64,000 nt of DNA from Mytilus edulis (Eukaryota). Below the pieces are notes generated by a model. That model did not search any database. It saw nothing but the letters and a program-made list of their open reading frames with translations, and was not told where the DNA came from. Below, one piece after another: positions 1 to 60,129 of the stretch. The stretch's first letter is position 1. Every line of letters begins with the position of its first letter. The translations under genes were made by a program, and so were the position numbers. The stretch lies in contig NC_092346.1 of the NCBI RefSeq assembly GCF_963676685.1, positions 20,584,001 through 20,648,000 on the forward strand, given 5' to 3'.

Positions 1-777
1 TCTAAATAAATAATACATTTTCAATCAATGTGGTGTTTGAACAGTGACAAATACCGATTTCTAAGCAAATTTTTCAGAAGGTTTAATCAATTTCATATAA
101 CTTTGCTTAAACAGAAATTGTATGAAGGAGGAGCATATAGGAACTTAAAACAAGTAAAGTTGTAAGCTACTGCTCACATATGCTACACTGCTCTAAGAAA
201 AATATTTGACAGGAAGTTTTTAATAACGCTTGATTTGTAGTTACTGAGAAAATGTGAGGTAATTTCATGCAAGGGACGGACTGACAAAGGTACAATGGTA
301 TACGTACCCCCATCCTAAAGAGCAGGGGTATAATAATTTGTAGGTGATAGTATCTTGCATAAAATATCTTGGAATTTTGTGGTAGTTGTGTTTTAGAAAC
401 CTCCAATCCCCCTAATTTCATTTCAGTCATGCATTAAGTTAAGAAATGGTGCAACATATTCTTAGTGTTTGAAACTACTTAATTCTGTGGTTTATTTATA
501 TCTTAATTCTGTGGTTTATTTATATCCTTGTGATAAAGTAAACAAATAACAAATAGATTTTTTAGTTAACCATGTTATTTGTGGTTTATTGCCACAAAAA
601 TGTAAAACAAATAATAACTAGTGCAATACCAGTGCACACGAACCCAGAGTAATCCTTCAAAACCAACAGGTATGCTGTTATCTTCTAAAATCATCATGTA
701 CTGTGTAACATCAAATCATTTATGATGAAACTCTATTTATAATAATGAATGACAGCTCAATTGAAAAGAAATATTAC

Positions 778-37900: not shown

Positions 37901-38256
37901 GTTTTTTTTTATCAGTATATTAGAAAATCAAGTTCTTGTCAATATCCTCGAGTACTAGTATGTAATTTGAAGTTGCATTAAAGAAGTTAATAAAGTAACT
38001 CCTATCATCAGTTATAATGAATTTTATTGTAGTCACAACGTTACCTCATTAGGTTTTCCTTTGCAGTTTCCTCCATGGAACGGGTCACCGCTTTCCATGC
38101 ATTTCTCAAACTGAATATCTGCCTGTATGTCTGGAATGGCAGCCTTGGATCAACAGTTTTCTTAGCTGAGCTCGATTCGGGTAAATGAATCTTCGTTTTC
38201 GCCTTTTGGCTAGATTTAGATTTAGATCCTTTGAATTTCGATTTTAATGCACCCAT
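34962..38256 (-). CDS. N-acylated (membrane-anchored) globin, 189 aa, 3 exons, atypical heme pocket
   Basis: Exons 38256-38045, 36778-36559, 35099-34962, with introns in phase 2 then 0 at the ancestral globin positions B12.2 and G7.0. A-helix LRNAWKAV, CD1 Phe in YAVYFP, GH/H motif ILGDRYTETTEENF. N-terminus is MGALKS followed by a Lys-rich stretch. Confidence 0.88.
36221..36326. mobile_element. 106-bp foldback MITE with 9-bp TSD (Mutator-like)
   Basis: Near-perfect 50-bp inverted arms around a 6-nt loop, flanked by ATCCTCAGG at 36212-36220 and 36327-36335. Confidence 0.9.
36348..36489. mobile_element. Small MITE
   Basis: Termini CAGTGGCGGATCCA ... TGGATCCGCCTATG with G/C-run subterminal sequence. 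Confidence 0.65.
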
Positions 38257-39790
38257 TTTGTAGTTTTAAACACACACATAAACAAATAAACACATGAATA
38301 AATAAATAAACAAATCAAAACATTTCAAAATAAATATCACAATATTCGGATATACATATCCGACCTTATAAATAGAGATATGATATAGATATGTAATTAA
38401 ATGTCAGGTACTATATACAAGTCTACACTCGATCTACTACCGTGCCAAGTTTTTTTCTTTATGGATTAAGATTTGCATTCATCTGACGTACTTCTGCAAA
38501 CAAAACCCCTTGTATGTACTCTTGTGTGAATGAACTACTTCAATATTTAGATTATTTCACTTGGACAAACATATATAATATTGGTAGGCGATAAAATTCG
38601 GCAGTGTTTTTATTCACCCCGAATTCAATCACTTTTTCAAAGTTTTGTATTAAGTTTTACAATATCGAAAAGTAGTTATAGTGGATTAACTTTTTGAGCA
38701 AACAGTCTTGTATATTACATATAATTTGATATTAATGAAAACGGATTTCTCTCTATATGCTAATGAGTCACAATGATTTTAATACTGTTATTTTTTGGCT
38801 TGTATGAGAAATATATAGCAATGCTGATGACTTTGACCTGATGGAACCCGGTTGAAGCAGCTAAGTATAATTAAAGGGTCAATGGATCTAAAAAAAAAAT
38901 GTGAAGCTTTGGAAATTTGCAGTATTGATTTGAAATCAAAACTTATAATCCTAACAATTAAGACATGCCGAATCCTTGTTTTCCGTAGTATAAACAAATA
39001 TGACAGTTTTGAAAGTAAAGTAATTCGGAATTTTGACTGCTTTATAGCTTCTCGAAGAAATCCTTGTATGTGAACTCAAATTAGTTGCTGGTAAAATTAT
39101 GCTCCGTTACTTATAGTTGTTCAAATTATTTGAAACATTATTCTGCTTTTTCAATTGCTCGTTCTATCATTTTATTTTCATTTTATTTATCATCTCAGTA
39201 ATTTGAACACCTGCAGGAATTTGTTTGTTTATTATCTTAATTTTAAAATTAACTACAGGTATATCTGCATACGGTTTCTGTATTTTTTAGAAATGTGCTA
39301 TGAATATGAAATAACCTTATTTGTGTGCGAGCAGACATTAGTAATTTGCTATGCATAAAAAGTATTTACGCATTCAGATTAGCTTCTCCACACTGAATTA
39401 CAAAGAGAATAATAATAATAAAACAAAAAACAGAATCGCGTTTAAATACACAAAGCCTAAATCCATTCCATTCAAAGTAGCTAAATAAGATTAGGACTTA
39501 TGGTCAGCTTTATCTGCAGGAGTTCGAACTTAAATGATTGAGATGTCTTATACTTATTCTTTATTATATAGATCTATGATTAAATAAGTTTTCATATGTA
39601 ATACGTATGCTTTTGTTTAGTTCTAGATAACATAACACAGCAAAAAAATAAAATCCGATCCTCGGTATGTGTACAAATACAATAAAATAGCAAACAGTTA
39701 GAGGAAAGACTAGAACGTAGTTTACCAGGTATTTTGGATTTAACGAAGAACTAGTCAAATTTATTTGAGGTCGAACGTTCCTTTTTTCTC

Positions 39791-39842: not shown

Positions 39843-40272
39843 AGTTTAAAACACAGGTAGGACAAAATAAGTGAAACGTAAAGACAACGTCTAGCTGCAA
39901 AATCGTAGTGTTTCATGTTAATTTTGGTATACACTTTGATACTCGATATTTTCGCAGAAAACAATAATGTACCATTTTTGGATATTTTTTTACTGATCTT
40001 TACTGAACTTATAGAAATAGCCAGATATTAAAAGAGAAAATAAAATAAAGTAGTTAAATGAGGTATAATTTTCAAAAAAGTAATAAAAAGAAATTACCGC
40101 CTTATTGCGTAAGATTGGGTTTCACCAAAACAAAATTTCCAAACCTAATTTCTGTTAACCTGTATCTAAACATACAAGTGGAAAACCAACATATGGTCAA
40201 ATTTTGTCAGCTCTGTACATTTGATTCGATAAGACATCACAAACGGTATCTGTGTTAGGCAGTCAAGACACA

Positions 40273-43200
40273 ATGAAAATCCATGCGTTGGCATTATGTG
40301 CTATTTTGCAACTTCCTTTCTGTTCGAGCCTGTCTGTTGAAATTTTGAAGCCAAACAATACCGGACCAGAAGCTGCACTAATTATCGTTCCTGGAGCGTA
40401 TATTTCAGGATCAGCATATAAACCTTTAGGTAAGTTAACGTATAAGTTTGAATTAGGGGTGATTACTTGAACAAAACAAACCTGTAGTTCAGACTGCAAC
40501 GAGTTGTAATAGAACACAATACTGAGATTTAAAAGCCACAAAAGCATTTTTTGACTTTTGATCTTGGAAATATAGTTCTGATATTGAACTAGATTAATTA
40601 AGGTAACGTGATTTGATAAAGGAAACGTTGATATGATAAAAGTAAAAACGGTACCAAACAATTCTTACATTCCTTTTGGTATTAACCCCCCTCTTTCCCC
40701 CCAACCTTTTTCCTTTTTCAGACTAGGTAACACATAACAGTAACTTACAAACTAGAACTGAGTCAAAACACAACAGAAAACTTTCTTTATAATTCAAGTA
40801 AAATAAGTTATGACCTTTGACATGAGCAAATAAAAAAATCAGTGCCTCTATGCAAATAGAGATCTGGGGTCTAGTGCTACGCATGGTTTTGGATGATCAT
40901 GGATCATAAAGAGGTTTAAAATGAGGAATCGCTGTCCCCCTTTAAACAGTTTGAAAACACAGGCTTTACTGAGTTATCTAATTCGCAAAATTATAATGGC
41001 AAGGTTTGAAATATTTGCCATAAATTGAGAAATGCATTTTCTTTACTGATATATATTCAAGTAGTATATTCTGGTGAGGGATTGAAAATACCTCTTCGGT
41101 ACTATATTATCGAAGCACGTCAAGTTGTTGTTTTGATAAAGTGCTTCATTGATATATTTATATGAATAAGAACTTTTATACATTTGTTCAGGCGGAAGAA
41201 TCATGGAGGATGCCGTTTTAAGCATTTAAGCAAGTTTCCACCAAATAATTTATTGGGCAACGGGCGACAAATGATATAACTTGATTCACTGTTAACATAA
41301 ATACGTTTTCTCAATACTTTAAAACTATCGATTTTATGATTGTCTTTTTTTTTATTTCTTCAGTAAAATCAGATTTTTGAATAACAGTGATTTTCCCCGC
41401 AATTTTAACTTTAATTCTAAGTGAAAACGAGAACTAAAGTTTCAAACCACTTGTACTTATAATAACTCTATGTTATAATTTACTTTCTCCTTTGCGTGCG
41501 ATACATTTATAACTTACTGCTTAGCTATAACTTACATTTTTTTCCACAGCCGAAGTTATTCAGAAGAATAGTAATCTGAAATTATGGGTTGCCTTACTAG
41601 ACGGATTTTTTAATAAACTTGCTAACCCACTCCAACTTCCTATAGTATTTAAAAAAGCTGTTAATGAGTTACAAAAGGCAGGTTATAAAGGGAAGAAAGT
41701 GTTCTTGGCTGGACATAGTCTTGGAGGTATGTACATTATAATATAACACTGTATTTAAAATTATTGATAGCTAAATAAATATTTGATTGGTTTAGAGTAG
41801 TACCCAACGTGACATTGAACATCAGATCCTGACTCTAAACATCTATCTTGCACGACGTAAAGCGAGGTGAATTAAGATATTTTTAGCGTTTAAACGCCTT
41901 CACACAGCGAACTCATTGTCAATAGTATGAGTTTTAAAAGCTTATTCATGATATAAATATTTAGATATTGATAATACCTACTGTATATGTGAAATGAAGA
42001 GTTCGAACCAGGTACGAGGCAGATTTGTGCGTTTTACGTCTTACTTGACTAGGATATTACTTGACTAGGATAGCGACTTTTTCTGCTGAAGGGTGTTTGT
42101 TCTCTACGGGTACAACGGGTTCCTCCACAAGTAAAATCTGACATATTTTGCATAACGTGGCGCTAAAACATCAACAGATAAATCAAACATGTATATTATA
42201 AAATTAAGGCATAGGAAAAAATTGCATGTTCTGAGAAGATTAGTTAAACGTTGAATTGTAGTGCTAAAAAAATCTATCAGACCGAACTTAAAATAGCCAT
42301 ATCCTCTTTTTTATGTTGAATTATCACCAACTATATGTGAAGTTTAATTATAGGTGAAGTTGTAGCCCTTTATGGACAAAAAGCGAACCATATTTTAGAT
42401 GGAGTGTTGTTATTCGCATCTTACATTACCAAGAACAACAAACTAAAAGAGTATCCATTCCCAGTTCTGACCATAAGCGGAGACCTAGATGGATTAACTA
42501 GAATAACAAGGATCGTAGATACATTCGAGTGAGATTAATAGACGCTGTTTGTTTTTTTACTTTCATATACTGTTTAATTAATGTGTAAGTTTTAAATGTC
42601 CCTCTGGTATCTTTCGCCCCTGTTTATAACAGCAAATATAAGCCATGCAATAATAGCCATATAAATGGAAAAAAAGTTAAAATAAAAAAAATAGAAATAA
42701 CATTGTTAATACATTTTAAAAAAAAATTGCTATACATTTTTATGAAAACGACTTACTAGTGATAAGAATCCTGTATGGAACCATGTATAACGTTAACAAG
42801 AAAGAACGTACTTGTTCAGTAAGATCCATTAAACACATTTTATAGCAAAGCGTATCAGTTGTGAAATAAACACGGCAAAAAAATGCGCCATACGGCTGAC
42901 ATTTCAGTAAAAAAAACTATAAAAATAATTGTCATTGAAAATCTGAGATTGTCCATTTAGCGTATTTTTCATGTCATCTTGACTATATTTTCCAATAATG
43001 CAAGGTTTGAAAAGGGCAATATTTTATTTTTTATTTTCAGGGAACTCCAAGAAGACGTAAAAAGCGATCCAGAGCAAATATACAGGACACCTGTAGTGGT
43101 AATGGAGAGCATAAATCATGGACAATTCGCTTCGGGTCCGTTACCCAAACCTGTAACTGACCACGATCTAAATCCAGAGGTATCTCAATCTGTAGCATAT

Positions 43201-45897
43201 AATACCATAGCTAATTACTCGAACGCTTTCATGGTAGTCATCAGAAATGAAACAGATACCAATGTAACGAAAGCCAAAAACAACTTAGAAGACGGTCATA
43301 CTAAAACTGCTACAATGATGCAGGTGAATATAATTTTATTTTTTTGTTTAACTGTTGTTGATCTTGGTTTCCTTTTTCCTAAGCGAATGTTTTTATGTTT
43401 TTTTCGACTAAAGATGGTTATACTTTGTACTTGTGTCTGATAAGGATCTTGCTTTCACATTTTTTGTTGGAATTAAAATTATAGGTTTAGTTCGAATCAA
43501 ATTATTCTTTTTAATATTCACGTTTATACTTCAATCAAATTATTCTGTAAAAATTAATGTTTTAATCTGTTAATACATTTAATTGTATTTTGAACATGCC
43601 ACCGCTTTAGAAGCGCATTAATTATGTTGGTATCATTTTAGCCTCTCTCGAAAGTGAAAGCTCTTGATCAAAATCCGGATTTTACCTCACACTGGACTAA
43701 CACTGCTCAAGAACTCGTTGTCAGTCTGAAAAATATAACAGATGTTGAGGTAATAATTTTTTTTCAGTAGAACTGTTAAAGTAGAAATCAATCACTTTAT
43801 TGTTAGCAGAAGATAAGCCATTTGTCATGATCTAAGTGGATTGTATCCTACAAAAGTATTTGATGTGTACGTAAAATGCATGAACAAAAATACCGACCTC
43901 CAATAATTCAACGAAGGGGGAGTCCATATAAGCTGACGAAATCTCCACTGTATCAATTAAGGGCACGAATGAAAATCGATTGTCTTATTCCTCGCCTGGT
44001 ACAGACAGTAGTTTATAGTTATATTGACAAAATTGGGTGAGCTATCAGAACCTACAGATTTGTCAAACGTGGCAGTTAGTGGGATCTGGGAGCACAAACT
44101 GTGTAAGCATATCACAGAGACTTAAAACATACAAAGACAATCTGACATAACCGTCATAAATGAATAAATGAATAAATGAATGGTTGAGCAAGTAGGTTTC
44201 CATAATAAATTCTGAATAGGACAACGTCAGACGAATAATAATTATGCATACACGCAGAACGTTATAAATAGTTATCAAAGGTACCAGGCTTAAAATTTAA
44301 TACACCAGACGCGCGTTTCGTCTACATAAGACTCACCAATGTCACTATCAAAATAGTTATACATCCAAACAAGTACAAAGTTGAACAGCATTGAGGACCC
44401 ACAATTCCAAAAAGTTGTGCCAAATACAGCTTAGGTAATATATGCCTGGGATAAGAAAACCTTATTTATTTTGAAAAATTCATACCTTTGTAAACAGGAA
44501 ATTTATAAAAATGACCATATAATTGATATTCATGTCAACACCATCTTGGCTTTCAAATATTCGGCTTTGAGCAATCCTGGTAAAGATCAACCCAAAAAAG
44601 TGCTTCAGAAGCATAAAATTTATAACGTGTTGTGTTTTTTTTTTCTTCATTAAAAGACTTTTTTCACTATGATTTATATGTTATACACTTATACACTTTT
44701 ATCAAAACTACAAACGTGAAAAGCGTTTTTGTTCAAATTGAATTAACCTCTAATTTATTAGTTTATCAACTACGAAGACGAATCACTGGACATTTTACCA
44801 AAGGAATTACCTGTCTTACTTCCGTCAGATAATGTAAAAATTGAAAGTTTAACAACTTTATGGATGCAACCAAATCCTCTAGATTCAACTACATCTCCTC
44901 TGAGTCCATTACAACTCAAAGCAACAATGAAAAGTCAAGAGGCTGTCAAAACGATTTTACCCTCCAGCCAATTCGGAATATCGGCATCCTGTAAAGAAGT
45001 CAACCAGGTATTGTCAGACCTATTTTTTCCCAACGAAATTATGTTATTATCAAATATGAACGGTATCTTTATTAACTATGCAAATGATTCTTAGAATAAA
45101 TGTTTGGTAATTAAAAGGAAAGGACAAATTGAAAACAACGGATTTGGTAAAATATCTGTTTGGAAACTGCAATTTGTAATTAAACTATCGCCGAACACAA
45201 AGTTCAGACAACAGAAATAATAGAAATAATTTATGACTGACAGCTAAATCGTCGGCAATACACAGGAAAAGGTACATCATGAACTTGAAAGAGTATTCTG
45301 CTCCGCGTTAGTCACCCGTCTTATTGTTCCGTGATCAAATTCAGGAACCTTTATTAAAGCGGGAATGTTTAAATCGACAGGTAAGGCAATTCTGTTTGTT
45401 TTTGGTATGGCCTCTTTTAATTGAGTTCTCTGCTTTAAATATTTTTCAAGCAAGGTTGTTATTTTTAATGATCCATCTGTAAAAAAACAGATTCAAGGAT
45501 AGTATTTAAAACATTGTATATATGAATGTAACATAGATTGTGACGTATACTTTATTAAAGACCCAATATGTTTTAGAATGCTTATGAACTAGCCTTTGCC
45601 AAATCGTCACCGATCGCAAAGGAAAGGTACACATCAAGAGGAAGACAAATAGTATTCAATGAGGACGTCAGTGTTTCATCACAATTTCAATGGATTAAGT
45701 CACAATTAGATCTCAACTATAATCAAACAGGTCTCTTTGTAACAGCTACCAGATTCCATACTGATATGAGTCAGCCAACGAAAAGCTATTCTGGACAAAG
45801 TGATTGTACTTTGATATCGCCATTCAGAGCAATGGAATGGATTTATATCGATTCTCTAAAATATACCAAGTCACAAATAGAATCTAATACTACATAA
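40273..45897 (+). CDS. Secreted alpha/beta-hydrolase-fold protein (Abhydrolase_5-like), 488 aa, 7 exons, intact catalytic triad
   Basis: Exons 40273-40429, 41550-41726, 42354-42528, 43041-43323, 43642-43749, 44762-45007, 45577-45897; all GT-AG, 1467 nt open. Signal peptide MKIHALALCAILQLPFCSS, oxyanion loop IVPGAYI, nucleophile GHSLGG, acid GDLDG, histidine NHGQF. AATAAA at 45961. Confidence 0.9.
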
Positions 45898-47154
45898 TTT
45901 GAGATTTAAGTCCATGTGTATATCAACTAAAAGTTTTAAAATGCAGGAAATGATTATAAAAATAAAGAGGTTTTATATAATAAAAATCACTGTATTATTT
46001 ATGTGGATATTGAAAACTCAACGATTCTACCAGAAACTTCAAATAGAGACGAAATTTTAAAACTCTCTTGAAAGTGATTAAAGAAAGCACAACATTCCAT
46101 AAACAGATATTTAAAAAAAATGGGACACAAGATGAAACATTTTAAATTAGATTTTATCATTTGTAATGGAAGGTCATCATCGAAATTCATCATGAGAAGG
46201 AAACCCATTCAAACTGAACTCTGAATTGTACCGATCTTGTAATTTTACTAACAAGTGTATACCCAATTCAAAAACTATTACAGCTCCGCATTTTATAGGA
46301 TTGACAATTTAAACCATCACTATATAGTTGCAATTAAAAATTGACTAATACTTTCAATGTTTGAGTTCCCCAGCATAATTTTCGGTCGGTGGTATTTTTA
46401 AAATCCAACACAGCAACTCAATGTATTTGGTCGAACACAAACAACTTGCGTGTATTATTTTAACATTTTAATAGATCCCATTTAAATAATAATGTTCTTC
46501 TGACATTATTTCTAGGTTTGGACGTATTGGTCGCTTTGAATTGTGCTACCTATATAATTGAAATCGTATTGGGGTGGATGAATTTATAGCAGGAGATGCT
46601 GACCATGTCATTTTAGTATCGTTCCTTCGGTTCGAGTTTATGTTACTTGTCCGGACTTTTGTTTCAAGTAACGTTCATTACGCCACAAACTTAGTAATGA
46701 TCTACTGATGATCTCTGGTGCTATATTGCTTAAAACGATCCCCATTTTATTACCAACGCACAATCCATCAGAGATCAACATATCTAATAAAAAGCACTAC
46801 ACATTATCTTTTAAATTTCTTGAACCTTGGACAACCAGTTGGAAAATTCACTGCAATAAGACTTAATAAATACTATTCGGTGGTTCTCTCCTGCCAATAT
46901 GGCTTCCTAGAATATAGTTGCTATAAATATATTAAATGGTGAAATTGAGACAGGATACAAACCATTATTGCAACTAAAATGAACAGGTGATGTAGTTATT
47001 TTGCTCTTGTTATTCTTATTCTGTTCTAAAAACCATGATTACAATGCCTTGGTTTTAAATTCTGAGCTTGATCATCACTGAAGAAGCAGCATTACTTATT
47101 TAGATACAGACCTGGTGCTGTACATTTGTTTTATCTTTTTAGTTTAAACATATT

Positions 47155-47435
47155 TATTTAAAGTGAATTGGGAAAGTTATCGTCACTCATATTAATCCCT
47201 TTCCACTTTCCGGGTGCGAGTACTACCTTGTAGCGACATTAGCCTCCTCTTTTTCGAAATCTACAAGAGTGTCTTTTACGTGCAAGACATATGACTCTCT
47301 CTTAACGGGTCAGCGATTTATTGTCGTCCTCTCCCGACGCACTAACATCAAGAACATACTCGCAAATGGTGTCAAGAAACCAGGAACCTTAGTGTTAGTA
47401 GTCCTATGCACTAACCACTACACTACGGCTCTCCT
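47155..47435 (-). mobile_element. tRNA-derived SINE, degenerate
   Basis: Minus-strand head AGCCGTAGTGTAGTGGTTAGTGCATAGGACTACTAACACTAAGGTTCCTGGTT has an A box and a decayed B box, followed by a non-tRNA body. Confidence 0.6.
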
Positions 47436-47835
47436 TACATTTCATGCAACGCTTAGGTGTATCCATTTGTACACATACAAACCAAATATTTAACAAGTCA
47501 CTTATTTTTTTTTCGAATATATAAGTCTAGTACACAAGACACGCGGTTCACTCACTAGGGGTGCTCGAATAGTGATATCGGATGTCGGTCGTATTGTTTT
47601 TTTTCAGATACTTCATCAAAACAAAAAATAAAAAAAACAGTAAGAGATAGAAATTCCCAAGGTCAAGTCTATAGTCCAATCTGCTGATAATATCAATGAC
47701 GCTCCTCGGTATGGTGTACAAGTCATCACATGAGGACGATATGCTATGATATACATAGATATGATATATCCTATTATAAAGATAATCACCTGATAAACAA
47801 AGATATACGTATTTGTATATACATCTTTGGACAAA

Positions 47836-50800
47836 ATGGATACAATATTTAAAATAGTTTTGTTTTCTTTGTGCATTCAATCATGTTTGAGTATAAAAGT
47901 GACTGTTATGGCTCCAAACAAAACTGGATTGGAAGCTGCAATAGTGATAGTTCCGGATTCGTCTATATCAGGAGCTGCGTATAAGCCTCTAGGTAAGAGG
48001 ACTACACAATCTAAGAATGTAATGGTTTTTCAATAATTTAAATTAACTTATGGGAATAGGGTTATATACCTTTTAACTGAATTTTGGAAAAAACATATTG
48101 AATAATATTAGAAAGATTTACTAAATACTGCATTATTTTACGTATAAAGTCGAATTACCCGTATTATACTGGTATCAAAAATGGAATTGCAAATCGAAAA
48201 GAAAGGCAACTGAAAAATTGAAATGAATTTTATCGAAAGATAAATTTAATTAAAATCGCACATCTTCGTGAATACGTTTGACCGAGGCAAAAAAATAATT
48301 AATGTATAAGAAATACAGGTCACTAAACAATGAATTCGTAAACACATTGTGCACGTATATTAACTGAGTAGCAAAATCTTGGAGTTATGGCCAGTTGCTT
48401 CAGTATGTGTGTTCAATCATAGGTTAAATATGAAAGAGTTATCAAAAGTCAACAAGAATGTTAATATAAAATTCTACAAAAAATACTTAAATATTTTTTT
48501 TTAATTACCACGTTAACTTTGAATGACTTTTTACACAAAATTTAATTTTTATCTGTTTTTGTAAAATTTTACATCGTGGGTGACATCTTTATTAAATGAA
48601 CTACCTTGTGTCTGACAACTCGTATTTCTGTACTCCCGAAAGAGTACAATGACAATAGGCGAGGAGCGGCTTACAAAAATCTGGTTTATCCCAACTCATA
48701 ACATGAATGTACAAGTCATGATATCTATACCGTGTTGTACAATTCATGATATCTATACCGTGTTTTACACGTCATGGTATCTATACCGTGTTGTACACGT
48801 CATGATATCTACACCGTGTTGTACACGACATGATATCTATACCGTGTTGTACATGTCATGATATCTATACCGTGTTGTACAAGTCATGATACCAATACCA
48901 GGCCTGGGGCCATTACATTGCAATGTAATGCATTACATTACAATTACTTTGTGATTCTTCCATTACAATTACTTTGTGATTCTTCCATTACAATTACAAT
49001 TACATTTTTTCTCACATGTAATGCATTACATTACAATTACTTTGCCTGTGTAATGCATTACATTACACATTACTTTTTCAATATAAAAACTAAAAACATT
49101 TCAAAAAACAGATTTTTATAAGAATTGATAAATTTGATGTAATTTGGTCGAATGATTTTAAATAAGTCAGAATATTGTCAGTATTTCAAAATAATGAGTA
49201 AAATTTGAAAATGTGCAAATTCAGTGGAAATTTTTCTAAACGGTCTATTGAATTTGATTGATTGATAGATGTTTAATGCCACTTTTAACACATTGTGCTA
49301 TTTCGTGGCGGTCAGTTTCAATTGGTTGAAGGAAGTCGGACTTCTCTTCGTGTGGAAAACTAAAAATCCTAGTCAATTAAGAACTAATTTGAATATTATT
49401 ACATTATCTCACTGGTTAAACTGTAAGGCACAACAAAATGTATACAAATCAATAAACAATGCATGGATGAGAGAATCATATATATTTATATATTATATAA
49501 TTCAATGTTGTGATGTCATTTTATAAAGTGTATAGCATAAATAGAATACAAACAAAGCTGGATGGAATATACAAGCATAGTTATTAAGAAACAGTATAGA
49601 TAAATGCATTCATGTTGGTTTATCTTTTTTAAATATAATATATAATATCTTATTAGTATAAAATCTAAACAATAAATTGGATTGTTAATGAATAACACAA
49701 ATACAATAAACACTACAAACATGTCACATGGATAACACAATCCATGTTTTCTTCTCCTATTTATCATCAGATTTTCATTTAAATAATTATATTTAGACAC
49801 CGACAAAAAAAACCTGTTTTTTTATATTTATTCATACTAGAAAAAGGAAGGCGAAAAGCCGGTTGCAAATTGACAACGCCATTGCAAAAAAAAAAGAAGA
49901 AAAAAATACGATCTAGAGGCAAATAACAGTATACAAAATATAGCATAGAAAATTTAGCACCGAAAAAAAATCACACCGGAAGGTTAAGGTGGTACCTAAC
50001 ACTACATGGAGATAACTCTGTAAAGTCAGCTAAACGTTTTAATTACGTTGTGTTGTAAAAGGAATATTAATTGTTATCAAAGGTACCAGGATTATAATTT
50101 AGTACGCCAGACGCGCGTTTCGTCTACATAAGACTCATCAGTGACGCTCATATCAAAATATTTATAAAGCCAAACAAGTACAAAGTTGAAGAGCATTGAG
50201 GATCCAAAATTCCAAAAAGTTGTGCCAAATACGGCTAAGGTAATCAACTTCTCAATGATCAAAATTGGTGTTTGTCAAATTGCTATATGACCAGTGTAAT
50301 GTTTCTGGCAAAACGGTTGGTTAAAATTTTTTAAAATTTTTATATTTTTGTTAACGTGTCAAAGTAAATACTTTGACAAACTTTTGTGAAAAATAAACGA
50401 GCCAAATTAATTTTAGTGAAAGTGTTGGGTACCACCTGAAGCAAATTATGTTTCACATGAGGTACCGGTCGTGTTGCTCATGCAGGTACACACTCGGTGA
50501 TAAATGTTATTCGATGACGTCTCTTTCGAGGAAAAAGGACGGAATTGCACTTCAAAAAAATTAACTTATCCGTCGTCATTTTCGAAACAGATATTACATA
50601 ACAGTTGATCAAAGTATGGCGTCCGTAAAATTTACGATGACATGACTTCAACCTCACCTCCTTTAGTAAATAGCTTCATTGTAAGCAGCAATTGTTTATA
50701 ATGGAAATCATGATAGGAATGCAAGCTGTGGAATATAGTATCAACTCGGATATATATTATCTAAATGCAGACGCTGCTTAAATGTTATTAAATAGAAATG

Positions 50801-53800
50801 GTAAGTTCACAATTGGGAAGCTAAAACTCATTTTTTGGCGTAATGACTATTCTCGATCGATCTTCATCGTCAATTTTAAGATGTTCGTCAAGATACGTAG
50901 CAGACATAACTGTAACTGGTGTATCATTGCATTTCAAGTTCGGTAATACATAAGCGTTAAACATTGTCACCAAACTTATTTCGGAATGGGACACATCTGA
51001 AAAGCGGAACGTAAGGTTTAAGCAGAAGGAAATAGCTTCTTTTTGATTTTCCTCAACACTGCATGTGTGAAATGTTACTTTTTTTAGTAAGGAACTAGTC
51101 GGTAAGAAGATGACCACAGCGGGTTCCGATGGAAATGCTGATTATTTGTTGAAAAACACGTCATAAAACGTCACTTAAGTGTTTTGTATCTATATTTGTA
51201 TCTACGATGACCAATGTTTGAATGAAATAATGCAAGATTAATTATTTTATCTATCTGTTAGTGTGTAAACTGAAATATATTGTGTAAAGGGTATAAAAGT
51301 CAAATATAGTTTATATTATAGCTATTGCTATAACTAAATGTTATTTAAAAAAAATCCTATTATTATTCATTGCGCTCAGTATTGTTTGGTGGAGGAAGCC
51401 AGAGAGAACCACCGACATTCGGTTGGAAAACTGACAATCATAGTTAATTCTCTAACATATCATATATTTGAAATACGTGCAAATATGTAAGCTCTGTCAA
51501 CAATTCCATGCTAAATTCATTTGGGTAGGTAAGTTTACTACTATTATCAAATTGTAGTAACAAGTAACACATATACAGTTCTGAAATAACTTGTAGATGC
51601 ATAGTGTTAATTAACAAAATAAAAAAGGAAAGTCATAGTAAAAAGTAAAATCACAAAAAAACTGAATTCCGAGGAAAATTTCAAACGGAAAGTCCCTAAA
51701 AAATGACAATATTAAATACTCACACACATCAAACGAAAGGATAGCAACTATTATATTCCTGACTTGGTACAGTAATTTAGTAATATCGCGCCCTATACAA
51801 GACTTATTATTGATACGTTCTTGTTTAGTCTTAGTAATTTAACTTAGCTTTTAATACATATCATATGGATGATGTTTCAGCTAACGCAATACAGATCCGC
51901 AGCGCTCTCAGCTTATGGGTTGCGATTTTAGAGACGAAACCAGGTTCATTAGCATTCCCTTTTGAATTCAACTATGCATGTAACGAGTTAGTGGATAAAG
52001 GTTTCCGTGGAGATAAAGTATTTCTAGCAGGCCATGGTGATGGAGGTAGAACACATTTTTATGCTCTTTCACTTTTAATCTATCTGATGTTCTCTTTCAG
52101 CAAAAGTATTACAGAGCAGAAGTACTATGAGATTATGGGTTGCGGTTTTAGAGAGCACACCAACTTCACTTTTATTCCCTATTAAATTCAACGGTGCTTG
52201 TAAGCAGTTGCTGGATGCTGGCTTTGAAGGCGATAAAGTCTTTCTAGCTGGTCACGGCTTAGGAGGTAGACTCAAATTATGGCATGATGTTTTCATATCC
52301 TTTTGATATATATTTAATCTTTAGTTTTACTTTTGTGATAAAGATTCTAGATAAGATTATCTGATATTTCTTCAAAACCAATTTTACTTAAATCTTATCA
52401 TGCATGTTCAGAATTCAAAATGATGAACCTTTGTGATATACATTCGGATTTAAACATTGTGCCTTCCTTTTCTGCTTCTCATTTCATTCACAATGACTAG
52501 ATTGCACAAGAAATCCATTTCCATAGTTAGTTTATGTACAATAAATTGCTCTATATTTTCATATTTCTAGAAGTCCATTACTAAGAAAAGTTTGCAAACG
52601 AAAAAGAACGTTTCCGGAGAACTCAATTGCAACTGTGAATACACTCTGATCTTTGTTGCTTTGTATAAGTCTCCGTTCTTTTCCTAGTAGTGGACTTCAC
52701 ATTTTCTTTTAACAAGAACTAGATTTGCATTTAAGTTTAATAGTAATGTAATTATATCTTTTGTAACTTCAAAGAAACGAAAACAAAAACCTCAAAGGGT
52801 ACAATTCAAGCTATCTGAACGCTTTGTAATGAAATATTATTATTGTTTATGCATATTTTGTTTGAAATCATTTTATCCTGCAATTACCCAATAAATTAAG
52901 ACCTACACACTATTATTGCTTTGTTTGAACAGTGAACACCTATTTCATTTCCCAATATCCTGCTTCTGTTAGAGACGAACGGTAATATTATAATACTGTA
53001 AATGTTATAGATCAGGGGTCATTAAGGGCTGTATTAAAAAAAATCCCAGTTCATGACAAAATAAAAGACAATATTTGCAATGCTTTAATGTTAAATTGTA
53101 GGATAAAAATAAAAGAGCTTGGTTACATGGTAACAGTATATGTAATCGCTACGATAAAACAGATGAAAGGTTCAATAAAAAAGAGGAGGATACACCAAAT
53201 GTCAATGACAATTCATATGTCAAAAATACCATGACAAAAAAAAAAAAACAACAAAAAAACGACGAAAAGACAAACAAATATCTAAGGAACACGAACTCCA
53301 TATAAAACAGAGGTGATTTTAGGCGTTCTGTAAGACAAAGTAGCTGTGTTATACATGTAACACCCGTCGTGCTGCTCGTGTAATGTGTAAATCGTTTTAT
53401 AAATCTCATTCGGTGTTGTCCCAATTGTGGAAAGAAGGCATCTGCGACAATTGGAACATACTCATGGTAATCTGTGAAACATATCAAAGTGAATTAACGG
53501 TCAACCCAATCATGATATGGTTTGTAAAACTTGATATTTTATATCTTTATCGACAATGTGCGTATGTTTAGTGTGTAAATTGTTTTGTGAATACATTAAT
53601 AAAATTGCAGCTTAGAACACATAAGCTATTTGAAGTAACGTCAATACAATAAACGGTTTTTGGGTTTTGCAAATAGGTTTCGTTTTAAATGTTTAGCATA
53701 CATTTGATACCTTTTCATGATAAACGAAGGTTAAAAGAGAAAATTTATTTCATAGGTCATAGGGCATCTAGTTACGGCCATTCAATATTCCATAAGAATA

Positions 53801-56800
53801 GACTTGATGGAGTGTTGTTGTTTTCATCGTTCCTCAGCGGAAGTTATCGGCTGAACAATTATCCATACCCAGTTCTTACAATTAGTGGGGACTTAGACGG
53901 AATAACGAGAGTAACCAGAATGGTCGATGCATTCGAGTGAGTGATTTTTTGTTATTATAATGATAGTAGTTAGGTAAAATGAAGTTCCTTACATATTCGA
54001 TTAACACGATCAATACATTGTTGTTCTGTGAAATAACAGCATCTAACGTGCGATACTATAAAAATTTGACCTCAGATGAATTTGGCTATGCCTTTAATGT
54101 ATCTTGATCTTTTAACGCCTTACGTTTCTACGCATTTATACATCACTGACTTTCAATTGTTTAAGCTTGAGAATACGGAAGAAGGTAAATATATATAAAC
54201 TACGAAATTTGTTTTACATGCACACGTATAAAAATTGCGGTTTTCATCCAACACAATCATAGGTTTGAACGTAGTTTTCAATTTAGACTCGTTTATATTT
54301 TTTCGTTTGGACTTGTATCATATTTTCCATCCGGTTTATATGATCCGTTCATCCTACATTGACTCTTAAAATTCAAGAGTCTATCTAAAAATGAGGGTAC
54401 TTTTTATATGGCCTTCCAAATACCGTTTCGATCTCTAACATCACTGAAGAGACATTTATTGTCGAAATCCGGATCTGGTGTACTAAAAAGATATTGACAT
54501 CGTGGCCACAAGTTGATTTTTTTTCTGTTTAGTATTAAATTTATATTAAGATCCATTTTGTTACATCTTGTGATCAATTTTATTTGGCAATCGCCAATGG
54601 CAGTCAGCAGGGTTAAAGAACATCAGTTGTTCGACCTGTTAGTCAAATGCGTTTTGTTTAAATAGACGCTCATATCAAAATAGTTATAAAGCCAAACAAT
54701 ACAAAGTTGAAGAGCATAGATTATCCAAAATTCCAAAAAGTTGTGCCAAATACGGCTAAGGTAATCTATAAACACTACCATTTTTTTAATTTATAGGCAG
54801 TGAAAACCGAAATATTTTGACAATGATATATCAAATTTACGTTGGAGTATATGAATCATGTGTTAACAAAATAGTAATTCATTTATTTTCATATGAATAT
54901 AAAACTTTTGAGCATTTTATTGTAATAACCAAAAGAATTTTTTTCATGTTTTTGTGTGTTTTGGGAAGTAAAAAATAATAACTGATATTTATACGAAAAT
55001 TACAGTTTTATAAACTCGGCTTAATTTATAGTTTGTTAGTGCATTGACCGAAAATTAGTAAAATAGTACAGTAAAAAAAAGTAAAAATAATGTAGAAATT
55101 TGAAGAATCGTGATATTTGTATCTAATCTCGAACGATACAATTTAGATTTTCTTTTTCACTTCTTGCCTTTTCATTGATTTTATTACATTGCCTACTCAC
55201 TAACTTACTAATTTTGCACGATTTCATCAAACATTAAAATTGAGAATGGAAATGGGGAATGTGTCAAAGAGACAACAACCCGACCAAATAAAAAACAACA
55301 GCAGAGGGTCACCAACAGGTCTTCAATGTAGCGAGAAATTCCCGCACCCGGAGGCGTCCTTCAGCTGGCCCCTAAACAAATATATACTAGTCCAGTGATA
55401 ATGAACGCCATACTAATTTCCAAATTGTACACAAGAAACTAAAATTAAAATAATACAAACTAACAAAGGCCAGAGGCTCCTGACTTGGGACAGGCGCAAA
55501 AATGCGGCGGGGTTAAACATGTTTGTGAGATCTCAACCCTCCCCCTATACCTCTAACCAATGTAGTAAAGTAAACGCATAACAATACGCACATTAAAATT
55601 CAGTTCAAGAGAAATCCGAGTCTGATGTCAGAAGATGTAACCAAAGAAAATAAACAAAATGACAATAATACATAAATAACAACAGACTACTAGCAGTTAA
55701 CTGACATGCCAGCTCCAGACTTCAATTAAACTGACTGAAAGATTATGATTTCATCATATGAACATCAGGCACAATCCTTCCCGTTAGGGGTTTAGTATCA
55801 TACCATCATAACATATATGAGAAGAACATAACCCGTGTCATGCCAACAACTGTTTTTAGAATAAATGTGTTTAGTTCCGATGCAAAGACCTTATCAGTGA
55901 CTCAATATTAACGCCAAAATATGCAATCTTTAATGACTTGACAACAGTATCGTAATTATATCCCTTCTTAATAAGTCTATTCAAAGGTTTTGTAAGTTTC
56001 TGAGGTGAATACTAACACCTTTGTGCTTTATAAAGAATATTACCATAAAAAATTGGATGTGAAATACCTGAACGTATTAGAAGTCTGCATGTTGAGCTAT
56101 ATTTACGAATGATGTCTTTATACCGATGATAAAATTTAGTAAATGTTTTGACTAGTTTGTGATATCGAAAACCCTGGTGTAATAATTTTTCAGTAATACA
56201 TAAATTTCTCTCGTTAAAATCGAAAACATTGTTACATTAACGAGCGAATCGTACAAGTTGAGATATATAAACACCGTAAGATGGTGACAAGGGAACGTCA
56301 CCATCTAAAAACGGATAATTAACGATAGGAAATGAAAAATCATCCCTTTTATCATAAATTTTAGTATTCAGCTTTCCATTAGTGATATAGATATCAAGAT
56401 CGAGAAAAGGGCAGTGGTCATTGTTAGTATTAGCTTTATTTAAAGTAAGTTCAACAGGATAAATTTCATTAATATACATACTGAAGTCGTCATTATTGAG
56501 AGCCAAAATATCATCCAAATATCTAAAAGTATTATTAAATTTGTTATTCAGATGTTGTTTCGATGGGTCTTTGCTTATTTTTGTCATTGTCTCCATTTAA
56601 ATTAAATTTCAGAGAGCTGGAAGCAGATTTGATACTAGCTCCAACACAAAAATTCACCACACCTGTAATTGTAATGGAAGGTATGAACTATGGACAGTTT
56701 GCATCTGGTACACTTCCACCAGCTGTAGCGGGTTATGACTTGAAACCAGAAATTTCCCAAAAAGATGCATATGATGCTATAGCTAACTACACGAATGCAT

Positions 56801-58895
56801 TTATGCTGTATGTACGGGACACCAATGTATCAGAAGCAACATCTATGCTCGAAGAGGGATATTCTAAAACGCAGTCGATACTTCAAGTGAGTTTGAATCA
56901 TCACCTCATTTCCAGAATTTTTAAATCATTATGATTGTTAACTTGAGTGTTTGTAACTTCGTCCAAAATTGTTTGTTAGCTCTAAGGGGAATATTAACTT
57001 TATTCCACAGAAATGAAATCGGCTAATTTTCCTTTTTTTATATTTGAAAAAATACATAAACTATACAGTTTTGACACACACCAATAATTAAAATTTACAT
57101 TTTAACTCCTGAGTAGCATTGTATTTTCTAAAAATCAAAATTTGCTTTTTAAGCCAATTACCAGTTGCATCGATATAGGCTTTCTCTGACCGCTAATTTG
57201 TTTTGTATAAATGAAGGTACAGATATGACAAACACGAAATGCATATTTAGTATAAAAATACACTTATTTTACAGGAATGAAATACAAAAGGCAATGTCAA
57301 GATTTGAATACCTAAAACTTATGATAAAAATGTATTATCAAAATCAGTCTAGAACCAAAAACTTATGAATATAAGCGACTAAATGATTGTTTTCAATAAA
57401 AAAATCTCATGGAGATGTATTTTTGTATAATTTCAGCCCCTTTCACAAGTGAAAGCTCTTGATGATAATGAAGAATATGTCTCCCATTGGACAAACACTG
57501 CTCAGCAACTTATAGTCAATCTTCTGGATACCTCACTAGTTGAGGTAAAAGATAACACATTGTTATTATCATATAGATATTGTATTAATATTAACATCAA
57601 AAAGCATTTAACACTTATACCGGAGTACCTGAGATCACCCCAGTTTTTGTTGCCATAAGCGAACTTGAAAGGGTTCAATTTTATCTCGATTGACTATATG
57701 ATTATCACAAAAGAGATCATCGAACTCTATATAGGTCTTTAATAAATAACGGCAAATAGAGAATAAATTATAGTATTACTAATCGCCGTATTTGAATATC
57801 AAAAATAAGACAACTTGTGACCGAACGCCGCTATGGATTAAACTTGTGCATCAAAAATAAGACAACGCGTGACCGAACGACGCATGGATTAAACGAGTGC
57901 GCAGCACAAGTTTAATCCATAGCGGCGTTCGGTCACAAGTTGTCTTATTTTTGATATTCAAATACGGCGATTAGTTATACTTTTTATTACATTGGCTAAT
58001 GGCTTTTTTTTATGAAATTAATGTAGAAAATGTAAGGAACTATATATTTTTCCTGCGCATTCACAATTTGTTTTGATCCGACGTTATCGACGTCTTGACA
58101 ACGTCTATTGTTGTATATGACGTCAGAGAGTGAAATAACCACGTTTATTTCACATGTGAAATTATCGGTTTTTATCTAACTTGGAAATCAATGTAATTTA
58201 TTGCAACCAATGTAATAAATGTTTATTGGCCCACCAGATGTAAACTTGAAGGATTATCATAATTGGGAGATTTGAATCATAATACATGTTTTTTAAAAGA
58301 TCTAGTAGAAATGACTTTACCAATGGGAAAGATATATTGAATTAAATCAACTACACAGAATCCCAATATATACACTTGATAAAAACAAAAACAAAACCCC
58401 CAACCAATTTATTGATGTTCTTCCACAAAATTCAAAGCGACCTCCTTAGAAGTGTTACTACCCGCATTTTCGTTAATCTATTGGAAGGATTTCGCGTTTG
58501 GATAGAATATTTAAACTGTGAGATTTTGCAATATAAGTTTTTTTTCCCTAATTTTGCTCACTTATTTAATTTATTTGAACATATCTCAATTGTTTATTTC
58601 AGTTTGATAATACCGAAGAAACACCATCACAGCCTAAATCATTTCGATTTCGCAAACCGCATCAGTCAGATATGTTAAAAATTAACAGCTCTACTGAAGT
58701 ATATTTTCCAAACACAGATGGTACTAAGATTCCTCAAAGTCCCCTACAACTTAAAGCAACTATGACAAATCAAAGAGCTATTAAAACACTCTTGCCATCT
58801 GCACCTTTTGGCGCACCTGCTACCTGTCAAGATATCAATCAGGTACTTGATTTATACGCTGATTATTTACCTCATAATTATTAACTGACATCAAC

Positions 58896-58938
<43 letters not shown>

Positions 58939-60129
58939 AAATAGTTATGTTTAGATTGTTTAATATCTGCAAGCAATCGAGATAATATGAATGCATGCCT
59001 AAAAACTTAAGTTGACTGAAATGGAACATTTTCACACCTAAAAACAGAAGTATTATTAAGTTTAAATTGTCAATGACTTGCAGCGCTTTGAAAATTCTCA
59101 GTGGCACTCATACCACATCTTCCTATATCTATTTTAGCATGCGTATATCACTAGCACTAGGGGTAGTTTCTTTTTTTTTTGGTCATAATTTATCTTTTTC
59201 ACTACCACTTGCGGTGTTGGCGGACTGGTTCTCTGTTTACACTCGCACAAGAGCCAATCAACGATGTGGACTTTTTAACTATATGAATTTCATTTAGATA
59301 TTATTGTATTCTGAAGTTTCTTTCACACATTTGGTCTCGAGTTTGTATAATGTAGGAAAATCAAGAGTCAGGTGTTGTGCGCCATGAAATCAGTACCATC
59401 CATTTTTCTTAGTCGTATGAGACGCATCTGTTTTCCTTGAATATTATAAACTTACCATTAATACCAGGCTAACAATTGTGTACGCCAAACACATGTTTCG
59501 TCTACACAGGACTAATCAGTGACACCAGAATCAAAACTTTTATAAAGCTAAATCAAGTACGAAGTTGAAGAGTATCAAAACCCCAAAAATTCCATACTGT
59601 TGTATGGATTCGAATTTTATAAAGAGAACATAAACTTAACATTAGCAACAGATTTGGAAATCTTTATTTTGGAAAACAATTATAACAAATTATGGAACAT
59701 AAGTGTTAACCTGATGGCGTATTCACTGATTTTATTTTGTTGTTAGGTTGCGGTCAAATGACCGACACTTAACATCTTCATTTATTCGTGATACTAATTT
59801 GTTTTTCTTAAATATTGTAGGATGCCTTTACACTAGCCTTTTCAAAATCTTCAGCCACAGCAAAGGCTAGATACCAGTCTAAAGGAAGGCCGATAAAATT
59901 TCTTCAAGACGTCAATGTTACATCGAAGAACAATTGGAACCAATATGGAGATCTAAAACTTAACTACAACATAACTGGTCTGTTTGTTCAAGCATCACGT
60001 TATATATCTACAAAACCATCAGGGAGAGATGATGACTGTACCTTGTTATCGCCCTTTAGAGCAATGGAATGGATATACGTAGATTCTTTGAAAAATACAA
60101 AAGAACAAACTTATACAAATAATACATGA
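47836..60129 (+). CDS. Secreted alpha/beta-hydrolase-fold paralog, predicted catalytically inactive, 477 aa per isoform, duplicated exon 2
   Basis: Exons 47836-47992, [51881-52045 or 52101-52265], 53756-53936, 56613-56886, 57437-57544, 58603-58842, 59821-60129. Same intron positions and phases as the upstream paralog, ORF fully open. GHSLGG is replaced by GHGDGG or GHGLGG, and NHGQF by NYGQF. Confidence 0.88.
48708..48890. repeat. Minisatellite, 28-bp unit, about 6.5 copies
   Basis: CATGATATCTATACCGTGTTGTACAAGT in tandem, followed by an (ATTAC)-rich element end starting at about 48900. Confidence 0.92.
49988..50436. mobile_element. Kolobok-type MITE carrying a nested retrozyme fragment (about 50073-50246)
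   Basis: TIR GGTGGTACCTAACACT / AGTGTTGGGTACCACC with flanks TTAA and TGAA. Confidence 0.75.
50103..50149 (-). ncRNA. Type I hammerhead ribozyme, intact core
   Basis: Minus strand reads GAGCGUCA-CUGAUGA-GUC uuaugua GAC-GAAA-CGCGCG-UC/UGGCGUA. Confidence 0.88.
50600..50990 (-). pseudogene. Decayed Penelope-like reverse transcriptase fragment
   Basis: Reads SATYLDEHLKIDDEDR...F*FPIVNLPFLFNNI*AASAF..YISELILYSTACISYHDF, homologous to the RT at 56237-56590. Confidence 0.75.
54438..54481 (+). ncRNA. Type I hammerhead ribozyme of a second sequence family
   Basis: ACATCA-CTGAAGA-GACA tttat TGTC-GAAA-TCCGGA-TC/TGGTGT: stem I ACAUCA/UGGUGU, stem II GACA/UGUC, palindromic stem III AUCCGGAU. Confidence 0.85.
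55232..56590 (-). mobile_element. 5'-truncated Penelope-like retroelement (Naiad-type): RT C-terminal half plus 3' UTR
   Basis: Reads FRYLDD...PFLDL...YDKRDDFSFPIVNYPFLDGDVPLSPSYGVYISQLVRFAR and continues in frame through two premature stops to ..SLHRN* at 55871. No GIY-YIG domain follows the RT. About 640-nt UTR whose terminal motif recurs at about 60371 and 63760-63812. Confidence 0.88.
55754..55820 (-). promoter_or_regulatory. Form-2 SECIS element (selenocysteine insertion sequence) in the retroelement 3' UTR
   Basis: Minus strand reads UCAUAU auguu AUGAU GGUAUGAUACU AAA CCC cuaac GGG a AGGAUUGUGCC UGAU guuc AUAUGA: helix I, AUGA/GA quartet, 11-bp helix II with 10 of 11 pairs, unpaired AAA and an apical mini-stem. 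Confidence 0.82.
57772..58218. mobile_element. Palindromic non-autonomous element (78-bp inverted arms plus an adjacent 12-bp IR module)
   Basis: Arms 57772-57849 and 57904-57981 are near-perfect reverse complements, and the spacer is a diverged copy of part of the arm. TTATTACATTGG (57984) and CCAATGTAATAA (58207-58218) form a second inverted pair. Confidence 0.7.
58897..58935. repeat. (AAT)n microsatellite, about 13 units
   Basis: Direct reading. Confidence 0.95.

Follow-up and report, generated by a model that had tools for sequence, protein, structure and literature searches.

Pseudoenzymes that have an alpha/beta-hydrolase fold are known mostly in old families with distant active parents. 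Neuroligins, glutactin, neurotactin, the thyroglobulin domain and NDRG keep the fold with the catalytic triad replaced (PMC3531081 and PMC7022630). On the catalytic side, the bacterial protein AroC, from the hydrolase fold-5 family, has been tested as an esterase and is active on a mimic of the polyethylene terephthalate (PET) trimer (PMC12177695). Here we analyse two same-strand genes, gene 1 and gene 2, at positions 40273-60129 of a 64,000-nucleotide window from the mussel Mytilus edulis (NC_092346.1, 20,584,001 to 20,648,000; the window is the whole stretch analysed, and coordinates refer to it unless a contig is named).

The sequence-only reading of this DNA had called the genes an enzyme and pseudoenzyme pair and had likened gene 2 to the neuroligins and GID1. 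The likeness is a functional one, in that gene 2 is predicted to keep the fold with unreactive residues in the triad as the known non-catalytic proteins do, but there is no sign that it belongs to their families: its only Pfam match at E up to 0.01 is Abhydrolase_5, with no cholinesterase-family domain. In contrast to the neuroligins and their like, gene 2 belongs to another hydrolase family and its product is predicted to be soluble, without a hydrophobic stretch past residue 45 that could serve as a membrane anchor (highest 19-residue hydropathy 1.1). It also arose recently beside an active parent, two alternative exons run across its pseudo-active site, and at least 10 Ser/Gly changes have occurred within its one family.

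Catalytic residues and fold of the two genes

Exon bounds of both genes were set at GT-AG sites, and the joined exons were then translated. Gene 1 (40273-45897, plus strand) has seven exons, all GT-AG and without an internal stop, and encodes 488 residues that match M. edulis RefSeq XP_071161905.1 (P0088) letter for letter. The triad Ser109-Asp157-His196 and the oxyanion Gly41 are all kept. Exon 1 (40273..40429) carries the predicted signal peptide and the oxyanion loop PGA (Gly41 codon 40393-40395), exon 2 (41550..41726) the nucleophile elbow GHSLGG (Ser109 codon AGT, 41717-41719), exon 3 (42354..42528) GDLDG (Asp157 codon 42488-42490) and exon 4 (43041..43323) NHGQF (His196 codon 43117-43119). 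The C-terminal domain (C-domain) begins in exon 5 (43642..43749), according to the structural model, and continues through exon 6 (44762..45007), where Cys377 was located by alignment, and exon 7 (45577..45897), with Cys459, the motif SPFRAMEWIY and the stop; exons 2 to 7 are all represented in spliced contigs. A Mytilus trossulus record (P0090) annotates the gene 1 orthologue at 323 residues, stopping after exon 5, either because the allele is truncated or because of an error in assembly or annotation.

Gene 2 (47836-60129, plus strand) shares 254/493 residues (52%, form 2b) and all intron positions with gene 1. The seven-exon layout ascribed to both genes holds for each transcript, but in the genome gene 2 has eight coding exons, two of them the alternatives 2a (51881..52045) and 2b (52101..52265). 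The two resulting proteins, both of 477 residues, are identical to XP_071161907.1 (exon 2a) and XP_071161906.1 (exon 2b) (P0100, P0102); like the gene 1 record, these are annotated in RefSeq as uncharacterised. Both frames are intact, as had been claimed. In exon 1 (47836..47992), after a predicted signal peptide, the oxyanion loop reads PDS, with Asp41 (47956-47958) in place of Gly. The elbow reads GHGDGG in exon 2a (Gly105 codon 52036-52038) or GHGLGG in exon 2b (Gly105 codon 52256-52258), with Gly codons GGT/GGC; GDLDG, with its acid Asp, is kept in exon 3 (53756..53936), and exon 4 (56613..56886) reads NYGQF, with Tyr194 (TAT, 56689-56691) replacing the catalytic His. The motifs and the three replacements thus all lie where the sequence-only reading had placed them. 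Exons 1 and 3 occur in spliced contigs and loose contig ends at 53936 continue into exon 4 in run X4, while exon 5 (57437..57544) and exon 6 (58603..58842, with Cys370) follow from the GT-AG model and the RefSeq isoforms, and exon 7 (59821..60129, with Cys448, SPFRAMEWIY and the stop) from its motif and the isoforms. Cys370 and Cys448 correspond to Cys377 and Cys459 of gene 1, and conservation of both cysteines and of SPFRAMEWIY is borne out; the signal peptides, proposed at the same time, are predictions from the hydrophobic N-terminus alone. Secretion of both proteins is predicted since, besides that N-terminus, each has no later hydrophobic stretch and seven N-glycosylation sequons.

The wider family agrees with these assignments. 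The Ser/Asp/His triad is present in 193 of 244 aligned proteins, where gene 2 has Gly/Asp/Tyr, and a 77-sequence alignment shows no variation at His108, Asp157, Gly158, Asp212, Cys377 and Cys459 and almost none at Ser109 and His196. The motif SHMQF of one family member aligns to (G)NHAQF of AroC, which supports His196 as the catalytic His. By its residues, gene 1 is therefore predicted to be an active serine hydrolase and gene 2, with Gly105 in both forms and Tyr194, to be inactive, in line with the original enzyme and pseudoenzyme call.

The AlphaFold model of gene 1 has the alpha/beta-hydrolase fold (predicted local distance difference test, pLDDT, 92), and gene 2 presumably shares it, given 52% identity. 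The Pfam Abhydrolase_5 profile (PF12695, cut-off 27 bits) gives 55 bits for a gene 1 orthologue (P0001) and 29 for gene 2 form 2b, with form 2a at 25.1, just below the gathering cut-off. AroC (PDB 9EH6) is the nearest solved relative both by sequence (profile E 5e-13) and by structure (Z 22.3, root-mean-square deviation, rmsd, 2.7, 196 residues aligned to the gene 1 N-domain), and the mussel proteins share its layout of PG..., GHSLGG, xLDG and NHxQF. Unlike AroC, a single domain of about 230 residues, they add a predicted signal peptide and a C-domain of about 210 residues, and gene 2 is without the triad. The second-best structure is wheat chlorophyllase (PDB 8FJD; Z 19.9, rmsd 3.2, 225 aligned), followed by cutinases, PETases and Lp-PLA2 (Z 17.5-18.6), and clusters of Chlorophyllase and of PETase are among the Atlas neighbours at 0.81-0.84, as leads only. 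Plant chlorophyllase, cutinases/PETases and Lp-PLA2 act on hydrophobic esters, and differ from the N-domain at 12-20% identity. At E up to 1, Chlorophyllase (PF07224) is absent from the 11 Pfam families listed for P0001 or P0002, and NCBIfam gave nothing near cut-off for 7 proteins. Since its N-domain neighbours are AroC, chlorophyllase, cutinases and Lp-PLA2, gene 1 is likely an extracellular hydrolase of hydrophobic esters, though a shared fold does not give its substrate.

A cluster of disarmed copies and recurrent loss in the family

The genes had been taken for a tandem pair. When the genome was searched with exons 4 and 7 and with a relative from scallop, at least five family members were found instead, four of them in one cluster. 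Beyond the window lie gene 3 (G000:C3:20649209-20664047; PAK, GHGNGG, NFGQF) and gene 4 (C3:20732411-20747588; PAK, AHGDGG, NYGQF), each of seven GT-AG exons without an internal stop. A fifth, distant member on contig C7 (approximately G000:C7:51773832-51782123, minus strand, loci L025-L026) reads GHGQSG, NLDG and NHGIF, with Gly at the nucleophile and the catalytic His kept; its best sequence matches, judged outside the tree, are to an older disarmed clade common to cephalopods, scallop and gastropods. The complete triad is thus present in one of the five members found, gene 1. Genes 2 to 4 form one clade (Shimodaira-Hasegawa-like approximate likelihood-ratio test 99) that is sister to gene 1 (100), and all three have lost the catalytic His (to Tyr, Phe and Tyr, respectively) and share a four-residue deletion in the loop after strand 4.

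The disarmed genes are nevertheless conserved. Between M. edulis and M. californianus, gene 1 is identical at 438/488 residues (90%) and gene 2 at 425/477 (89%), gene 4 matches its M. coruscus counterpart at 414/479, and frames and splice sites are intact in five Mytilus species records. Nei-Gojobori ratios of non-synonymous to synonymous change (dN/dS) are 0.208 (genes 1 and 2), 0.223 (2 and 4) and 0.245 (3 and 4), with dS near saturation (proportion of synonymous differences, pS, 0.64-0.78) and 3/6 pairs not computable. As genes 2 to 4 are one clade beside gene 1, the last two paths post-date the loss of catalysis, and purifying selection has continued after it.

Both genes are also spliced. 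RNA contigs over 40200-54100 came from 4 of the 14 runs listed, from 4 studies, and were found with a stretch of gene 2; two of the four are RNA by guess, though they hold spliced joints. Gene 1 junctions occur in 4/4 of these runs, that of exons 1 and 2 in every one and each of the six in 3 or 4, and gene 2 junctions in the same 4/4; one run is labelled invertebrate gut metatranscriptome. In four raw-read RNA runs (about 6-18% of each), reads covered intron repeats and exons of neither gene. Joint presence and absence fits shared, tissue-restricted expression, while read depths cannot rank the two genes. Highly transcribed repeats in gene 2 introns (55200-56600 and 49980-50440) dominate read depth, and two short repeat arrays were seen by eye in its intron 1 (48716-48890 and 48905-49075). 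The three variants of gene 2 listed in the contig runs are all silent, too few to weigh.

With its triad lost and the gene intact, expressed and constrained, gene 2 has the properties of a pseudoenzyme. That it was kept by selection, as first proposed, agrees with its splicing, an orthologue divergence like that of gene 1 and a dN/dS of about 0.2; it is neither unexpressed nor evolving at a ratio near 1, the outcome that the proposal had named as telling against itself. A decaying duplicate without function is accordingly a very remote prospect, already largely refuted: some relaxation is seen in exons 2-3, but intact frames and splice sites across species, protein divergence equal to that of gene 1, spliced transcripts and two more intact disarmed copies all argue against decay. 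The sequence-only reading had proposed gene 2 as a binder, decoy or regulatory partner of gene 1. The expression data would also suit gene 2 as such an inactive partner that binds or regulates gene 1, whether as heterodimer, chaperone or competitor. The genes are adjacent, spliced in the same four runs and absent from the same four, and AroC crystallised as a homodimer (PMC12177695). We regard this as unlikely, since three disarmed copies and two isoforms for one enzyme suggest ligand diversity instead, and the cephalopod members among the named matches are disarmed only (a partial look, not proof of absence).

A profile search returned 738 representatives at E up to 1e-30, of which the best 150 were seen. 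The members named come from bivalves, gastropods, cephalopods, echinoderms, a hemichordate, a shrimp, an annelid, Volvox, Paulinella and a foraminiferan, with two bacterial loci among GTDB genomes, one from Oligoflexales; the other, for which neighbours were listed, lies in no evident operon. After 30 near-duplicates and gappy rows were removed, 244 proteins of at least 280 residues left 214 rows, with Ser at the nucleophile in 177, Gly in 30 and 7 set aside (3 gaps, 1 misaligned, and Ala, Tyr and Leu). On the tree, 10 Ser/Gly changes are needed, where shuffling gives a mean of 28.5. Of the Ser rows, 163/170 retain the oxyanion Gly, and of the Gly rows only 6/27; the rows are related and not independent.

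Three groups of Gly rows appear in a 51-row animal tree. The first is the Mytilus cluster, the second a clade that joins Octopus, cuttlefish, scallop, Lymnaea and Elysia (100), and the third a clade (97) in which an Elysia member sits among active genes that are Aplysia-like. That all molluscan rows of the Gly type share one origin was rejected (approximately unbiased (AU) test, p 0.0002), with the group defined by residue after the first tree had been viewed and the nucleophile column left in the alignment. The Ser-to-Gly loss has thus recurred, in no fewer than three separate lineages of molluscs. A single transition turns an AGY Ser codon into one for Gly, a residue that suits the strained elbow, so its repetition may be structural; the informative part is the repeated survival of the gene rather than the repeated residue.

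The Gly-type rows also bear on whether gene 2 could still be an enzyme, with another chemistry run through His104/Asp155 or through the Asp that adjoins the exon-2a elbow. Among Gly-type rows, 30/30 retain the acid Asp and the His preceding the nucleophile, and 25/30 the catalytic His, namely all 25 outside Mytilus; tomato MKS1 is active with Ala at the nucleophile (PMC3531081). [quoted passage not shown] Continued catalysis by gene 2 is therefore very doubtful.

Two further features of family members were observed. P0224, P0233, P0166 and P0235 share an extra domain of about 180 residues, N- or C-terminal, and in P0237 a Gly-type member is fused to a second Abhydrolase_5 domain. The latter was considered as a fusion of a dead with an active domain and dropped, the second domain also being without Ser and His.

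Exon 2 variants, pocket divergence and the C-domain

Exons 2a and 2b are each 165 nt, identical at 117/165 nucleotides and different at 21/55 residues, and each matches its counterpart in M. coruscus or an M. coruscus-like record at 49/55. Junctions of exon 2a with exons 1 and 3 occur in 1/4 contig runs (X5) and those of exon 2b in 4/4 (X1, X3, X4, X5). No 2a-2b junction is among the joints listed for the four runs, where contigs drop rare forms, and none of the 14 cluster members read has both exons in one protein. The two exons thus likely behave as mutually exclusive. Joint inclusion would preserve the frame, so decay of the transcript cannot enforce exclusivity. The intron between them (52046..52100, plus strand) is a GT-AG intron of 55 nt in which potential branch points lie 33 and 42 nt away from the donor; a steric limit of <50 bp is given for exclusive exons in human introns (PMC5740500), and by carrying that criterion over to the mussel we consider the intron probably too short to join 2a to 2b. 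Equal length, frame, similarity, bridging junctions and a short intron are shared with known exclusive pairs (PMC5740500), from which the present pair differs in that the swapped exon bears the nucleophile elbow of a pseudoenzyme. On the gene 1 model, exon 2 forms strand 4 with the loop and helix that come next, then strand 5 and the elbow. This loop presumably lines the pocket, as in cutinases.

The C-domain (about 210 residues, slightly below the roughly 220 first estimated) folds alone over residues 274-480 at pLDDT 92 as a mixed alpha/beta structure, and its two invariant cysteines likely pair. The sequence-only reading had not recognised it, and profile and structure searches likewise found no match: Foldseek at E up to 0.001 and Pfam on exons 6 and 7 and on whole proteins gave nothing clear, an Atlas search no usable match, and a VIA search of 48,161 chains a best Z of 3.4 (rmsd 6.7, 134 aligned). 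Biotin/lipoate ligases and class II synthetases were set aside as kin, Z of about 3 being at noise level. Such search blanks do not establish novelty, and the domain may or may not be a new fold. Lys355 (165/177) and Lys460 (152/173) of active members, in exons 6 and 7 of both genes, are Thr in the aligned Mytilus cluster proteins, gene 1 included, possibly marking a changed C-domain site.

Divergence is distributed unevenly along the disarmed proteins. Compared pairwise, exons 1-2 are 37-43% identical and the C-domain 55-60% (p 0.0004-0.011; 33/88 versus 125/207, 32/87 versus 113/207 and 37/87 versus 126/214). Active orthologues show the reverse trend, with exons 1-2 at 50-62% and the C-domain at 36-40%: gene 1 has 46/92 and 86/213 with oyster (p 0.13) and 56/90 and 77/213 with scallop (p 0.00004). 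Because exons 1-2 diverge in this way and two forms of exon 2 are maintained, the disarmed copies may be binders with different pockets.

The same numbers would be explained by a relaxed, now structural N-domain, with the kept function in the C-domain, as a second binding or catalytic site or a scaffold, for which the disarmed N-domain is a folding partner. The C-domain is held tighter than the pocket half among the disarmed copies, folds alone with high confidence, and retains its polar residues in Gly-type rows (Cys377 and Glu469 in 30/30, Asp412 and Asn381 in 29/30). However, it never occurs alone in the genome, 5/5 matches being the five family genes; the exon kept in two forms sits in the N-domain; and both C-domain lysines of active members are changed throughout the cluster. 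We judge a C-domain function rather unlikely as the explanation.

The reading we prefer, to which we assign about an even chance, is that gene 1 is a predicted secreted, likely digestive esterase and gene 2 a protein that likely binds or carries hydrophobic ligands without catalysis. In the mussel lineage, a single duplicate would have lost catalysis once and then tripled. The changes at the loss would have been Ser AGT to Gly GGN, His to Tyr/Phe, oxyanion Gly to Asp/Ala and the four-residue loop deletion after strand 4. The disarmed copies would then have retained the fold and a C-domain with its disulfide, as exons 1-2, the half that forms the pocket, diverged, with the exon 2 swap of gene 2 providing two pocket variants. 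In gut fluid they may hold the substrate or product of the esterase, perhaps dietary lipid or pigment esters, uncut.

Several observations weigh against this preferred reading. First, the faster divergence of exons 1-2 fits relaxed constraint equally, as does the dN/dS of 0.49 for exon 2a against 2b; over exons 2-3, gene 2 differs from M. californianus at 14/116 positions and gene 1 at 4/118 (p 0.014), the same contrast against M. coruscus giving p 0.064. Second, the low dN/dS values are rough because dS is near saturation. Third, the link to the gut is a single run label, among runs picked with the gene 2 stretch, and the ligand, substrate and activity of family members are predictions only. 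Fourth, the Octopus member is disarmed and octopuses are carnivores, so that the older clade fits an algal-diet ligand poorly. Lastly, the extra domain of the four relatives has a weak lipocalin likeness (Pfam E 0.15; 7/9 PDB rows lipocalins, E 1-2.6) that is below significance, a lead toward small hydrophobic ligands rather than support for them.

A more specific version, which we consider improbable, would make the family an unrecognised chlorophyll- or phytyl-ester-processing system of algae-eaters. Gene 1 would be a gut dephytylase and the disarmed copies would sequester phototoxic chlorophyll breakdown products, with the exon swap tuning the pocket and a binding role of a new-fold C-domain letting catalysis drop repeatedly. 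The pigment idea found no backing in a search of the literature for chlorophyllase or dephytylation in the guts of molluscs or other invertebrates.

Neighbouring sequences and significance

Upstream of gene 1 and divergent from it lies a globin gene on the minus strand, with frames at 36544-36798, 38044-38265 and 34965-35261; one exon scores 27 bits against Pfam Globin and the other two frames, without a match, are likely exons. Positions 749-5533 (minus strand) hold exons of another gene with no significant Pfam match, including a 270-residue low-complexity frame (4724-5533) and a likely coiled-coil exon near 3260-3469. Outside the window, a reverse-transcriptase fragment lies within a gene 3 intron (L005:9084-9941, minus strand), and sulfotransferase genes lie between genes 3 and 4 (L008:598-1155, plus strand, and L011:3852-4958, minus strand; Pfam Sulfotransfer_2, 80 and 121 bits), with a third long frame at the L010/L011 boundary that looks sulfotransferase-like by resemblance only.

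Literature searches, with most subscription papers outside their reach, turned up no work on these genes or on the family in molluscs. The surprise is limited, because RefSeq already includes the genes with their two isoforms and paralogues that are pseudoenzymes are generally common. The cluster is nonetheless a real, conserved and expressed set of enzyme and pseudoenzymes, in an unstudied two-domain family whose functions we infer. One locus offers an active parent beside young disarmed copies, the family contains at least three molluscan origins of the same Ser-to-Gly loss, one of them common to cephalopods, bivalves and gastropods, and a natural exon swap across a pseudo-active site is combined with a domain for which no structural match was found. 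Four or five recombinant proteins from a single animal would therefore allow a test of what dead hydrolases keep doing, and the substrate, if found, would give a name to a secreted enzyme that is conserved among molluscs, echinoderms, crustaceans, algae and a few bacteria.

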